From: Eledone cirrhosa
Taxonomy: Eukaryota
Assembly (NCBI GenBank): GCA_964016885.1
Contig: OZ024740.1
Location: 113,832,001-113,896,000 of the forward strand
DNA length: 64,000 nucleotides
Reading direction: 5' to 3'
A program made the position numbers and the translations under genes. This document shows, in pieces, positions 23,201 through 64,000 of this stretch; the first letter of the stretch is position 1, and each line of letters starts with the position of its first letter. The notes under the pieces are model-generated. The model saw only the letters and a program-made list of their open reading frames with translations, ran no database searches and had not been told where the DNA came from.

Positions 23201-23391
23201 CCGTTTTACGTCCGTTCTTCCAAGCTAGCATGGGTTAGACGGATATATATATATATATGTGTGTGTGTGTTAATATATCGATAAACATATACATTCACAC
23301 ACACACTCACTAATTTATATGTATATATATATACTTATGAATATAATATAATAATAATAATAATAATAATAATAATAATAATAATAATAAT

Positions 23392-26046
23392 GTTTTCTTT
23401 ATTAACCACAAGGGTTTACATAAAGTAGACATTAAGGACAGTACAGGACAATACAGGACGGTACAAATGGGCATTTCTGCGTGTAAAAAACAGAGGAGGA
23501 AATAAAATAACAAAGAAAAATTCCCCAATGGGGGGAGACTTCCGACGGACATTTGTGGAGAAAGCCCATTAAAAGACCACAGTGACCCTGACCACCAGGG
23601 CAAGTGCCCTCACCCAGTTTTCCACCCTTAATTTACAGACACATATTCATTCGGGCCATACTTGCTTCTCTCACCCATCTTTCAACAAAATGCTGGGAAG
23701 AGAGCATTTTCCTCTCTACCCTGATTTTCCTTTTCAAATGAAATTTGAAAAAGTTAATCAGGGCATCACCGAAGAGGTAAGTGCTCGTCTTCAGCCCTTT
23801 CAAACGTGTCCACCATACTATCTCTTTCGCCATGGCCACCAGACAGATAAAAACTGCCTGCCCTTCCCGGCTAAAGGAAGGGGGCGGGGCAATCCTCACG
23901 ATGGACTCAGCTGATAGCTGGATCCGTCCTACACGTGACAGCAGGTGTTCGACATAAACCCACAAGTCAGCAATGCTCGGACACTGGACGAGTGTGTGCA
24001 AGACGGTTTCGTCGCCCTGTGCGCATCTCGGACATGCCCGGCTGACGGCACCTCCATGCCTGTAGAGTTTATCCCGAATTGAGATTCTGTACGATTTCTG
24101 AGTGATGCGAGTGATTTGTATGTGTGGAGGGGGTGTGAACTTTTGGGTTGTTGTGTAGTCTTTTTCTGTGATGCTGGTCTTGTGTTGGATGTAGTGTAAT
24201 AATTGCTTGTTGTTCAAATTTAATGCTGTGTAGTGTGTATCGTTTTGGTTGTTTTGTTTTGTTTGCGTTTGTTGTGGGTTAGTTTGTTTCGCATTTTGGT
24301 GACTTTTGTGGTGTAGGTGATGGTGGTGTTGGGGTTAATTTATTTGTTTCCCTCTGTATTTTGTTTTTGGAGGGGGAAGGAAGAGAATTTTTTCTTTTTT
24401 GGTTTCTTTTTTTTTCCTGATACCGTTTCCCACTCCTCATCGTCACAATCTGTCTCCAGTTGTGATAGGCCGGGGAGTGGAAAATCCTCCACAGGCGTTA
24501 GTTTTGGTTGTGGTGTGGTGGATGGTGTAGGCGCTGGTGCTAGTTCTGAAGCGTTGGGTGGTGGTGGTGTTGGTTTTGCTGGTGGTGGTGGTGTTGGTTT
24601 TGCTACTGTTGCTGGGGTTGTTCCTGTTATGGTTGCTTATGTTGTTGCTGCTACAGTTGTTGCTACCATATCTGCTACTGGTGGTGTTGATGGTTGTGTC
24701 AATGGGGTGGGTAGGAGAGGTGGCCTCAACCTTTTAGCCTGAGGGCAGAAAGCCCTTAGGTGGGTTCCTTCACCACAAACGACACACCTAGGCCTTCTGC
24801 CCTCGACAATTACGGTGAGGTGGCTGCCGTCAGTGAGGTCTATTACCTCTGGGATGTCCTCAATGCTTTTTTGGTCCGCTTGGATCAGGAGCTCCATCCC
24901 AGATCCGGACCAGTTCTCCTGCTTTTCTTTTGCTATTGCCATTATCTTTGTGTTGGCTTCGATGCCGGCGAGGACGGCCGTTATTAGCCAGGGAATTTCG
25001 ATGGCCCGTGGAACATGGGTCACCCTGATCTTTACGAGTCTCTGGCCACAATAGCTTGGGACGAGCGTGAAGTCGTCACTTCTTAATGGGGCCATGGAGT
25101 GTTCTCTAGCCTCCTCTGGTGTTTCAAAGAACACGTCCACGGTTCCATACTTTTTCCCTCGTCTGATGTGGGGTTTTCTTGCCCACACATGTCCCAAAGC
25201 ATTTTGGATTTGGGACTCGGATGCCCGTTCCACTCGGCGTGATTTTACATTTATTGTTCGATACGACACGGTGCATAGGCGCCGATGCTCCATTTTATTA
25301 GGTGGGGGAGGCTGACCCTGTACCCATCTTTCTTTACCATTTGTTTGGCATTTTCTAAATCCTCCTGAGTTACCGTAAATGCTTCGAACTGTTTTGCTAC
25401 TATGGCAAAACTCAGGGTGCTTTTTTTATGTCATTGTTGTTGTTGTTGCTATCGTTATTTTTGTTATTACTAATTTTAGTTTCAGTTGTGGTGGTGGTGA
25501 CGTCAGTGGTTTTCGGTGTGGAAGTGGAAGAGTCCATTTTGGTTGAAATTATTTCGACATCACGAGTTGATTTATTTTTTCCTTTTGTTTCTGTTATCGC
25601 GGTGGTGGTGGGGGTGGTGGTTGTCACGGTGGTGGTGGTGGTGGCGGCTTTAACACCTGCAATCATTGGTAATGGCGGGAAATGAATGTCTGCCTGAGAC
25701 AAATTTAAAATATTGCTACTGCTTACATTTTTTTTAGTGTTGGCAAACGGAGTAACATTTACAATGGTGGTGTCGGTGTGAGGTGTTAATTTGTGAGGAA
25801 GGCTTTCAGCTGCTTGGTGCAGAGGTGAATTAGCCATTTTTTTTCAAAGAAATTTTTTGATAATCATAAAAGTTTAAATTTTGGGCACAAGGCCCCAATC
25901 TTTTTGGGTGTCCTTTTCGGAAAACAATGTATGTGCGCTTATATATAGTTAACAATAAAAATTTTCCATAAATGGCAATGTTTAACAAACGGAAATAACA
26001 AACCTTTGCGGAGCTCACGATGATACGATTTACTACGTAGGTCGCC
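23392..26046 (-). mobile_element. Tx1/L1-clade element 'C': 5' UTR and ORF1 joined to the extreme 3' end of ORF2; APE and RT missing
   Basis: Bounded by (AAT)n on both sides. ORF1 knuckle is CVVCGEGTHLRAFC. At ~24078 it switches into RDKLYRHGGAVSRACPRC. The 3' UTR closely matches family A and ends in AATAAA plus an (ATT)n tail. Confidence 0.9.
23633..25837 (-). pseudogene. Disrupted ORF1 fused in frame to the ORF2 C-terminal CCHC domain
   Basis: ORF-track pieces 25412-25837, 24637-25293 and 23633-24217 are homologous to family A ORF1 and ORF2. Breaks fall at homopolymers and stops. Confidence 0.8.
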
Positions 26047-60878: not shown

Positions 60879-63800
60879 CGCACGTGGTGGATAGAATGTT
60901 AAGAAATCGCTCCCGTAAGTTTTTGATTTTTAACATATTTAAAACAATTGTGATATAACAATTCTTAGTACAAATGAGACATAAAATACCAGACTCAGCT
61001 CTCAGAAAATTCGGATCCATAATATCCTGTTATATCGCTCAAATATTCAATGTTGTATTATAAATTTTATATTCAAAAAAGAAAATGGTTTATAAATGGA
61101 AGAAAACACCCTCTTTCTACACTATATAGAAAAGCCAAATAACAGCAAATTCACCAACACCACAAACTAGATACACCATCTACCCCATCACCCCTCTGTG
61201 TACACTAAATACAACAGCCAGATAACGGCAATTTCACTACCACCACCACCAATCTCAGCATAATAATAATAATTACTATTATTGTATCTCAAGTTTTCTC
61301 AAAATATTTAATTCAAATATTAAGAAAATATGTCAACACATATATTAAACATATGCGACAAACCGCATAGATACACAGATCAAACAAACGCATACCACTA
61401 CAGTCTATTCAACAACACTCAGTAACGACAACACCATCACTATAGTCACCGCCGCCACCACTCCATCATTGCTACCACTATCCCATCACCGCGACCACCA
61501 CTCCTTCATTGCTACCACCACTATTCCCCCACTACCCTCTGTTAACTTAAGAAAGGAGAAGGTGGCGGTATCACAAGACAAGGAAGAGACTAGCAAAAGA
61601 TATAAATAGACTGACTTAGTGACTCGGGCAAACGTCAACGACTATGGCACTGCTGGCTCCACCCCTTCCCCACCAACAATAGAAAAAGCCTCAGCACCAC
61701 CACCGACATAGCCAATAACAATAACAGGCAAGTTCAGCAAAAAGTATATTATATTATTAATAATAATTTCATTCTTAAGCCACGCAATGCTCACATTAAG
61801 GAACCACTCATGATAATAACAATTTAAAAAACAACAAAATAGAAAACCCCGTGACAATGAAAAACCGGGATGGCGGCCAGCGGGGAATAGCCGTGTCTCT
61901 AGGGGAGGACGACCCCTCTAGTCTTGGTTGACACTCGTCCTAGAAGTGGTAACACGAAATGATTACTCCTTGGCGGTTAATGATAAAACGCGACAAAATA
62001 AAATAAATGTCAAATGATACAATCTCATACCGGATCGGCCGTCACCCGGGTCAAAAAGGGCCGCGTCCCTCAGGGAGGAACGAGACTGGGGTCTAAAAAT
62101 CAGCTAATTGTTCAAACCTTCCCATCACTTCGGAGCTGGAGACCTCCCATAACCGGAATACTCCTACTATTGGACTCCATGCTCACCACCATGAAATCCA
62201 AAGAAAAAGAGAGAGAAATGGTCAAGGGAATACAATAAAGAAGTCCTTGGGGCTTTCTACACTGCCATATACTACCCATCAAATAGATCGAATACAGATC
62301 GAATACAGATCGAATACAGAACTGGAAAAAGAAACATCCCGAAAACAGAGGCTATATTGACAGTAACAAACTAGCCAATATACGAAGAAATATTGTTAAA
62401 CAAATTTACTAACTGATATAGAAATTGATCAGATCAAGCTATTAGCACAAAGTCAGCGAAAGTAAAATGAAACATGTGTCAGTGAAAACGAGGTAAATTG
62501 TAACACTTCGAATCCCAGGCTTGGGGCGGAATCACTGACAACAGAACAAATTAAAGAAAGGATCGAAAAAGTGGAGGGTGTGCATGCTCAAGATGAAACT
62601 CAAAATGAAAACAATCAGATCGTAAATGATAAAGAAATGAATGAGAATGAACTTGCCAACTTGAAGGATGAAATTATGATCGAATGGATGAAAATGAAAG
62701 AATCTGACATGGGGGAACAAGACACTCTCCCTAAGATCCAGAACTCCAAACAGAACCAAAAGATAATACACAAGACTTACATAATTCTCAAAAACATTAT
62801 CATCACAAACAAACTAAACATTACTGATTTAAAGCATATCTATTATGCATCGGCTAAAGTCACCACTCACTTATGTGGAGTGAAAATGAAAAAAACAAAG
62901 GAATTCCCACAAGAAATCTACTTGACAAAAGAATATCAATCGCCAAATTAACCTTCTCCGATCTGACATAGAAATTTTAACAAACTACAAAGTTAAACAA
63001 ACATGTTAAACAAACTAAACTTAGAAAATTGAAAAGAAAATACAGTATAAAATCAACAAGTGACATAGACATGCTGATAGAAATAATCAAGCAAAAAGTG
63101 TCGGCCGAAGTTGCTCGTATAAGGCGCTTTGAAAAACGATCTAGATTCTATAAGGACAATAATATGTTCAAAAACAACCAAAGAAACTTCTACAGAAAAT
63201 TTGGCAAGTCAACAATAACTGCTAAATCAATACCACCCAAGGAGGAAGTGCAAGGATTCTGGGAAAAGATCTGGGCCGAAGAAAAAGTTCATAATATACA
63301 TGCCCCATGGATAGACAGACAAATGAAAGATACAGCTCATTTTGAGTAACAAATATGTGAAAATATAACAGTTGAACAGTTGCGTTTGGCTCTTAGGAAA
63401 ACCAGCAAATGGAAATCCCCAGGAAAAGACAAAATACCAATTTTTTTGATAAATGCCTTCACAGACTCTCATGAGCTGTTAGCCCAACTTTACAATGAAA
63501 TAGTTAAGAAGCCAGAAAATATACCATCATGGCTAGTTAACGGCATTACATTCCTGCTTCCGAAGAATGATGAGACAAACAATCCCAAATATTACAGACC
63601 GATAACTTGCTTGACCACAATGTAAACAATTTTAACATCAGTCCTAACTCAATATACATATGACCACCTGATAACAAATGACCTATTTCCCAATGAGCAT
63701 AAAGGGTGTAAACGAGGCTCATATGACTGTAAGGATCAACTTTTGTTAACAAAATAATACTGGAAGATTGTCATAATGGACACACAAATCTATCAATTGC

Positions 63801-64000
63801 TTGGATAGATTATAAAAAAGCATTCCATAGTTTGCCACACCGTTGGATTGAAAAAATGTTTAGAGATTTTCAAAATATCTCCCGTTGTCAGGAGGTTCCT
63901 GTCATTCAGTATGAAGACATGGAAAACAACATTCCTTTTGAATTTTTCAGGGTGACTCTTTATCACCGCTTTTATTCTGCATCGCACTTATACCATTAAG
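60872..64000 (+). mobile_element. R4/Dong-type element B, a second, degenerate family; runs off the right edge
   Basis: Leader is homologous to A1 from 33850 onward. ORF remnants include KWSREYNKEV, ARIRRFEKR, WKSPGKDKIP, YRPITCL, KDQLL and WIDYKKAF, with many stops and frameshifts. Confidence 0.88.

Follow-up and report, generated by a model that had tools for sequence, protein, structure and literature searches.

A 64,000-nucleotide stretch of the Eledone cirrhosa genome (contig OZ024740.1 of assembly GCA_964016885.1, forward strand, positions 113,832,001 to 113,896,000), hereafter the window, carries in its positions 23,343-64,000 ten non-long-terminal-repeat retrotransposon copies that are set in (AAT)n microsatellite. 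Five copies belong to the Tx1 clade and lie on the minus strand, and five are Dong-like and lie on the plus strand. We consider it probable that this array grew through repeated, independent target-primed insertion into (AAT)n; each lineage likely primed on a different strand.

The copies, numbered E1 to E10, were delimited by self-comparison, a repeat scan and reading of the sequence, and their anatomy, junctions, enzyme motifs and mutual divergence are direct observations. They represent five families or variants (Tx A, Tx B, Tx C, Dong A and Dong B) and make up 38,719 of the 40,658 bases (95%). The plus strand reads (AAT)n at every visible junction, and (ATT)4 is absent from that strand across the window. 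Read in their own sense, all five Tx1 copies end in (ATT)n and all four Dong copies with a visible 3′ end run into (AAT)n, and self-comparison revealed no nested insertion among the ten. A first-pass annotation made from the sequence alone had reported these numbers of copies and families, the uniform polarity of each lineage (5/5 and 5/5), the tails and the absence of interrupted elements, and self-comparison together with the sequence confirmed them all. Its 40-kb array is real, but a 1,336-base non-element spacer divides it into a cluster of two copies (E1 and E2) and one of eight (E3-E10). Its statement that each copy is bounded by (AAT)n holds for all visible junctions, except that the 5′ flank of E10 is (AAT)9(AAG)17 and the 5′ tract of E2 is imperfect. 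The annotation had also placed decayed copies at the margins and young ones inside. Open reading frames (ORFs) are intact in E6, E7, E8 and E9 and broken in E1, E2, E5 and E10, which agrees for E1, E2 and E10, but E3 and E4, at the left edge of the second cluster, still match Dong A at 98.6% and 96.7% identity. The right margin of the array lies beyond the window end.

Layout of the two clusters

The first cluster begins with an (AAT)n tract at 23343-23391 (this and all following tracts are given on the plus strand), which forms the 3′ flank of E1 (23392-26046, minus strand), a Tx B copy consisting of the 5′ untranslated region (UTR), a broken ORF1 and the 3′ end, with an internal deletion of approximately ORF2 residues 1-963. 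(AAT)11 at 26047-26079 joins the 5′ end of E1 to the 3′ end of E2 (26080-31893, minus), a full-length Tx C copy whose ORF2 falls into five aligned pieces with five stops. The imperfect tract 5′ of E2 occupies 31894-31930 and is followed by the spacer (31931-33266, no strand assigned), which contains TA/TG runs and pieces resembling short interspersed elements, the latter found again near position 12,950.

The second cluster starts with the (AAT)n tract at 33267-33320, the 5′ flank of E3 (33321-33466, plus), a 5′-truncated Dong A copy of 146 bp with its tail at 33467-33518. E4 (33519-33793, plus), also a 5′-truncated Dong A copy, is 275 bp long and is followed by (AAT)n at 33796-33846. E5 (33847-38689, plus) is a full-length Dong A whose ORF (35224-38615) is interrupted twice, by a stop (37210) and by a 1-bp gap (37526); within its 5′ leader (33847-34911) we noted a 327-bp tandem duplication (34003-34654) with units 95% alike. 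(AAT)17 at 38690-38740 forms the tail-to-tail junction with E6 (38741-44770, minus), a Tx A copy with an intact ORF1 (44557-42458, 699 aa) and ORF2 (42422-39003, 1139 aa), and (AAT)8 at 44771-44794 forms the head-to-tail junction with E7 (44795-50817, minus), in which both Tx A ORFs are likewise intact. After a head-to-head junction of (AAT)17 at 50818-50868 comes E8 (50869-54648, plus), a Dong A copy truncated in its 5′ UTR with an intact 1130-aa ORF (51182-54574), and after a tail-to-tail junction of (AAT)40 with AAC variants at 54649-54768 comes E9 (54769-60799, minus), the third Tx A copy with intact ORF1 and ORF2. The composite tract 5′ of E10, (AAT)9 followed by (AAG)17, lies head-to-head between E9 and E10 at 60800-60878. 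E10 (60879-64000, plus) is a decayed Dong B that extends past the window, so that its 3′ end lies outside; its ORF, starting at approximately 62,014, is frameshifted.

The Tx1 elements

The three Tx A copies (E6, E7 and E9) are full length, share the same 5′ termini and are 98.9-99.3% identical to one another. Tx B (E1) is 90% identical to Tx A over the 3′ 690 bp and 55% identical at the amino acid level in the ORF1 core, the ORF2 body being deleted, and Tx C (E2) has approximately 76% DNA identity to Tx A over ORF2. Pfam domains Exo_endo_phos, RVT_1 and zf-RVT in the Tx A ORF2 correspond to an N-terminal apurinic/apyrimidinic-type endonuclease (APE), a reverse transcriptase (RT) and a C-terminal zinc finger, and the endonuclease aligns to that of human L1 with its catalytic motifs kept. 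The APE catalytic, YADD/FMDD, CCHC and PD..D motifs are all intact. A Pfam search with the Tx A ORF1 gave no match; the protein has a CCHC motif at aa 374, and its look-alikes in the Atlas are zf-CCHC, ZCCHC3 RNA-binding and RRM families (0.91-0.93). In Tx1-clade elements generally, RNA-binding and CCHC knuckle domains are encoded by a separate ORF1.

In a quick IQ-TREE maximum likelihood tree of the RT (56 rows; loci lacking an open RT stretch of at least 230 aligned residues excluded; Dong as outgroup), the Tx copies of the window form a clade with P0001 (SH-aLRT 100), to which P0002-P0005 are sister (100). Together with seven metagenome loci, L004 and L007 among them, these constitute a 14-row clade (SH-aLRT 96). 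In L004 (4675-4885) and L007 (5815-5977) an A-run tail joins U2 small nuclear RNA (snRNA) at approximately position 33, with the first ~30 bases missing, a junction of the kind described for Keno in the text of PMC4494074. Domains, ORF1 and the RT tree thus place the APE elements of the window in the Tx1 clade, as judged from sequence and with anchors recognized by their U2 junction, not by named Repbase entries. The metagenome loci, 64 in all, served as tree anchors only (approximately 21-53% in the best segment, mostly near 30%), and none contains an AAT or ATT run of five or more units. Among named sequences, the one closest to Tx A comes from Argonauta hians (56% aa), which by itself points to a cephalopod as the likely host, and no relatives of the Tx or Dong proteins were found in the viral contigs searched.

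All five Tx1 3′ ends consist of AATAAA, 6-7 further nucleotides and (ATT)n. Each of them passes into the repeat as C|ATT, and poly(A) is present at none. At the 5′ end the junction is ATT|G in four of the five copies. Three Tx families that are up to ~25% apart have (ATT)n at both termini.

The Dong-like elements

Dong A comprises E3, E4, E5 and E8 (96.6-98.6% identity), and Dong B is represented by E10, whose protein is 34.5% identical to that of Dong A. The single 1130-aa ORF of Dong A contains RT, CCHC and what we take to be RHD and PD..D motifs of a restriction-like endonuclease (RLE). Among solved structures, R2 proteins come closest to it (E 9e-29), and no named R4 anchor is among the 120 homologues listed. 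On the strength of the single ORF with RT, CCHC and PD..D, and of the (TAA)n target, we class these RLE elements provisionally as Dong-like. All five 5′ flanks are at (AAT)n, one of them via (AAG)17. The tails of E3 (33467-33480) and E8 (54649-54660) both open with AATAAC, which suggests that tails are carried along through the RNA.

That Dong-type elements target TAA repeats had been stated in the first-pass annotation as established, and the text of PMC3812793 reports this target for silkworm, mosquito and snail; a Bombyx mori 5′ junction primer given in PMC3774820 likewise reads TAA in sense orientation. The same preference is visible in other hosts, represented by animal-like contigs of the genome bins G001 and G003. 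In 40 regions of these contigs, chosen around matches, at least (TAA)3 lies within 60 nt of 16 of 31 Dong-like 3′ ends and (ATT)3 of 0 of 31, against a background rate of 0.33%. One G003 region (G003:C16:508263-519468, L139) holds a same-strand cluster of Dong-like copies and fragments with six AAT tracts, and its last tail passes from AAT into AAG. Taking the (AAG)17 before E10 to prove a separate target was rejected, because (AAT)n(AAG)n follows a Dong tail in G003 as well. A different kind of tandem segment was seen in G001:C16, where Dong-like fragments repeat with a period of ~8.16 kb (at ~5,462, 13,621 and 21,778).

Both lineages have been reported from other cephalopods: L1-Tx1 and Dong-R4 elements are described as expanded in coleoids (text of PMC8967140) and as recently active in Octopus vulgaris, with 421 and 1,129 insertions, respectively (text of PMC13282606); neither text mentions targets.

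Proposed mechanism and polarity

In the scheme that we favour, for which we infer the nick positions, the RNA ends and the order of events, the Tx1 APE would place its nick in the AAT strand, at a T^A step, and the RNA copied there would end in or at (AUU)n, without poly(A). The restriction-like nuclease of Dong would nick the ATT strand and prime copying of an RNA that ends in (AAU)n. Nick and RNA-DNA pairing would together set the orientation of each lineage, and the repeat left on both sides of each insertion would keep the site reusable and the neighbouring elements unbroken. Treating the ten orientations as independent draws was rejected: each lineage makes one strand choice. With one strand register per lineage, the copies of a lineage within a tract would necessarily share one direction, and opposite polarity would amount to a single 1-in-2 outcome.

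The first-pass annotation had proposed that an APE and an RLE converged on one repeat and nick opposite strands. The distinction between APE and RLE, repeated insertion into a regenerated target and the opposite-strand priming implied by the junctions stand, but a choice of strand by the endonuclease alone is not established. The strand may be chosen by the enzyme or by pairing of the RNA 3′ end, and the latter may carry part of the specificity, because T^A steps are present on both strands of (AAT)n and because subfamilies of a sister lineage that are ~2% apart, with an identical hairpin loop, occupy unrelated spacers.

Several observations weigh against repeated independent insertion into a preferred repeat. 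For the Tx1 elements, specificity is judged from five copies of a single locus, all at (ATT)n, and the criterion for target specificity used for Tx1 elements in the text of PMC4494074 is 20% of flanks genome-wide. The sister Tx1 lineage forms arrays without any microsatellite, and 15 of the 31 Dong-like ends in other hosts, many of which appear decayed, lack (TAA)3. An (AAT)40 tract at 12503-12623, oriented like those of the array, contains no Tx1 or Dong insertion, and sequence alone does not explain why eight copies chose one tract. Finally, the majority sequence of run X1 differs from E6 at 22 listed sites (from the 40 of 861 rows listed), of which 17 are private to E6, two are shared by E6 and E7, one by E6 and E9, and two by all three copies. 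Because E7, E9 or both have the E6 state at 5 of these 22 sites, a degree of common ancestry or of conversion among the three Tx A copies is likely.

A sister Tx1 lineage and a possible role of the RNA end

A scan of prokaryote genome bins revealed that G001, labelled as a bacterium, includes animal-like contigs (C3-C19; loci L065-L103, L106 and L150-L169) with long head-to-tail Tx1 arrays. There are at least 57 near-complete ORF2 matches on 16 contigs, with a single strand per contig; this count leaves out 12 weaker rows, and binning probably enriches such arrays. The arrays contain no microsatellite, and AATAAA is followed not by poly(A) but directly by a spacer of ~17 nt that differs from subfamily to subfamily. 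This spacer is repeated between units, occurs also at the unique 5′ flank of the arrays in C6 and C17, and precedes 5′-truncated copies in C9 and C19. Because the spacers recur between units, at array flanks and before truncated copies, this Tx1 branch has the trait of re-inserting at a regenerated target. The leaders and 3′ ends of the window elements had no blastn match in any fetched locus, and the non-array DNA of the window had none in the 40 G001/G003 regions; the hosts of G001 and G003 are therefore not close kin of the species studied here.

These arrays raise an alternative for the window, namely that Tx1 RNA homes by itself: a relaxed endonuclease would accept many sites, the site would be picked by pairing of the 3′ flank carried by the RNA, and an ancestor that landed in (AAT)n would have become (ATT)n-specific, so that polarity would need no strand-selective enzyme. 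We regard this as unlikely. It would account for the missing poly(A) in both the window and the sister lineage, for the spacers at junctions, array flanks and truncated copies, and for the AATAAC shared by the tails of E3 and E8. The G001 subfamilies that use unrelated spacers are only 1.9-2.0% apart in ORF2 DNA, their β-hairpin loop is identical in 12 of 12 aligned copies of that family, and the endonuclease is variable at 38 of 240 sites, not above the rest of ORF2; faster evolution of the entire endonuclease in this lineage was rejected on the same figure. Unrelated spacers, an invariant loop and ordinary endonuclease variability favour the RNA end or local amplification.

Other features of the endonuclease point the opposite way. 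Residues 64 and 65 show four and five states in eight subfamilies, residue 65 being the most variable site of ORF2, and both adjoin the position of L1 Lys70 (mapped by eye via the L1 endonuclease alignment), a DNA contact according to the text of PMC8565326. The window Tx clade has its own, shorter β-hairpin loop, and this difference and the variable residues favour the enzyme. One of four close pairs has an endonuclease-enriched ratio of nonsynonymous to synonymous changes (p = 0.03; the others 0.19-0.51; uncorrected). Specificity in SART and TRAS follows the endonuclease (text of PMC7265360), and the 5′ flank of C19 matches its own spacer only partially.

Independent insertion or shared ancestry of copies

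Three differently truncated Dong copies (146 bp, 275 bp and 3.8 kb) all start directly after (AAT)n, and the repeat is therefore the target and not only the tail. Private substitutions are unequal among the Tx A copies, with 38 in E6, 13 in E7 and 19 in E9 (chi-square p = 0.0007 for a test of equal age). Of the 30 private changes in ORF2, 16 are synonymous versus ~30% expected (p = 0.008), which indicates different active source elements. Because the Dong truncations each follow (AAT)n and the private changes in the young Tx copies are unequal, the insertions are likely independent.

Duplication of DNA at the locus, or unequal exchange from one tract to another, could have made part of the array instead, chiefly the three Tx A copies, which at ~99% identity, full length and with identical 5′ termini share some derived states. 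Arrays with copies 0.0-0.4% apart exist in G001, and for R1 and hobo the text of PMC5932611 describes unequal exchange after a double insertion. The unequal counts and the synonymous excess speak against such an origin, five families and three different truncations cannot result from it, and the closest pair is never part of a repeated multi-element block; overall we judge it rather improbable. Duplication of a Dong+Tx block was rejected, since the two Tx A copies that follow a Dong A copy, E6 and E9, form the least similar Tx A pair (98.92%).

We think it still less probable that the locus is a local trap, such as heterochromatin or a PIWI-interacting RNA cluster, in which Tx1 elements without repeat specificity pile up in AT-rich tails. 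Ten copies lie within 40 kb while the (AAT)40 tract 11 kb away is empty, and the family is abundant and varied in sequencing run X1, where 60,879 contig records align to 39150-45200, 12,702 of them at ≥99%. However, no Tx copy lies inside another element or in the many TA, AC and AG tracts of the window, and all five share the same strand and 3′ register. An assembly artefact, with collapsed or duplicated repeats joined at AAT runs, is very improbable. All joins are in simple repeat, no record spans 39150-45200, where the repeat itself was skipped, and the raw-read runs X22 and X23 gave only 7 and 14 low-identity reads over this interval, in low-complexity parts. However, both the sequence differences and the tract length are particular to each copy, the family occurs in independent runs, and similar Dong clusters and Tx arrays are present in other assemblies.

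A Tx1-like leader in the Dong elements

The leaders of Dong A and Dong B (1.1-1.4 kb) are 76% alike over ~350 nt in E5 and E10, though their ORFs are so divergent. The first ~220 bases of the leader run colinear with the 5′ UTR of Tx A as far as an A-rich ATG (33847-34100 and 60868-61130 compared with the reverse of 44511-44770). None of 922 window tiles, 438 locus tiles and 1000 shuffles reached the local score of Dong B against Tx A. For Dong A the corresponding counts were 8, 4 and 17 for the local score and 0, 0 and 2 for the global score. No likeness was found between the Dong leader and Tx C, and none between the Dong leaders and seven sister-lineage 5′ ends (0/7; score reached in 13-186 of 200 shuffles). 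Because several families have a GTAAG motif close to the 5′ end and because the likeness was noticed before the statistics were computed, convergence is possible. It is plausible, from these alignments, that Dong took up a Tx1 leader through template jumping, which would constitute promoter capture across clades.

No ribozyme like that of hepatitis delta virus (HDV) was detected: Rfam gave no match, and a strict descriptor gave 0 hits in six 5′ regions. Two UTR pieces showed no unusual folding, although divergent ribozymes could escape such searches. A broader scenario joins the leader to the sister arrays: a Tx1 branch would have lost poly(A) and would aim by host sequence at its RNA 3′ end, every subfamily would home to a target duplication of its own and form arrays, a subfamily that had captured (ATT)n would thereby share the repeat of Dong on the opposite strand, and Dong would have taken a Tx1 leader in place of its ribozyme. 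This scenario we hold to be doubtful.

Relation to known systems

The closest functional parallel is SART and TRAS in the (TTAGG)n repeats of Bombyx mori, which insert in opposite directions into one simple repeat, form mixed arrays of two non-LTR families and have had their specificity moved by endonuclease swap (texts of PMC7265360 and PMC10088271). TRAS1 nicks at a T^A step (same sources), the step that we propose for the Tx1 APE. SART and TRAS both belong to the R1 clade, are of APE type, carry poly(A) tails and lie in telomeric repeats, whereas the window pairs a Tx1 APE with an RLE, without poly(A), in an interstitial trinucleotide repeat. The array works like the SART/TRAS pair but is not a member of it, because its elements are Tx1-clade and RLE elements in (AAT)n and not R1-clade elements in (TTAGG)n.

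Among Dong elements, those of B. mori, DongAg and DongBg resemble the window copies in having one ORF that encodes RT, CCHC and a restriction-like nuclease, and in their TAA target in the same sense (texts of PMC3812793 and PMC3774820). The B. mori Dong 5′ end is self-cleaved by an HDV-like ribozyme (text of PMC3774820), whereas here the leader is Tx1-like. Other Tx1 APE elements with simple-repeat flanks are Kibi at (TC)n, Koshi at (TTC)n, crocodilian families at (TTCC)n/(TTTC)n and the telomeric Tx1-1_ACar (texts of PMC4494074 and PMC10088271); (ATT)n is not among the targets named in the text of PMC4494074, and here the repeat is shared with an RLE element. Double-insertion arrays of Drosophila R1 resemble the window in that the target is regenerated and copies stack with target between them (text of PMC5932611), but here five families of two clades are involved and the spacer is a microsatellite of variable length.

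Dong at (TAA)n and the use of one repeat on opposite strands, as in SART/TRAS, are already known. A Tx1 lineage that lacks poly(A) tails and probably targets (ATT)n, in common with Dong, is likely new, and so is a sister lineage whose head-to-tail arrays form at ~17-nt spacers particular to each subfamily. Our literature search found no Tx1 family at (ATT)n, a weak negative that did not extend to Fig. 3 and the supplements of PMC4494074, Repbase or Kojima and Fujiwara 2004, and with the same limits it found no APE/RLE pair using one repeat on opposite strands.

The locus brings together intact young elements of APE and RLE type in one three-base repeat on opposite strands. It thereby offers a natural comparison of how much of the target choice of long interspersed elements (LINEs) is owed to the endonuclease and how much to RNA-end pairing, and sister subfamilies that differ by 2% at unrelated spacers make that question directly testable. 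RNA-end homing and the cross-clade leader could be two leads beyond the main finding and, if true, would mean RNA-programmed targeting and module exchange across APE and RLE clades. If RNA ends steer insertion, these would be naturally re-targetable LINEs of interest for site-directed gene insertion. If not, the array would add a new Tx1 target and an example of microsatellites in repeat-rich genomes turning into transposon arrays.

Distribution of the family and further loci

Words of E5 and E6 are present in 20 runs from 15 studies, of which 7 runs contain half or more; no RNA data set is among those listed, which carries no information on expression. In run X1, the summed contig depth over 39150-45200 is ~4-fold lower in ORF1 and the 5′ UTR than in ORF2 and the 3′ end, with a step at the ORF2 start that may reflect subfamilies with different ORF1s, depth not being copy number. 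A 73-aa fragment labelled Escherichia coli (P0163) is 74% identical to Tx A and is likely a contamination. L1-group elements in L014 (9202-9356) and L104 (3036-3199 and 9961-10137) lie beside U1 snRNA copies with a poor 5′ match and are possibly U1-targeting.

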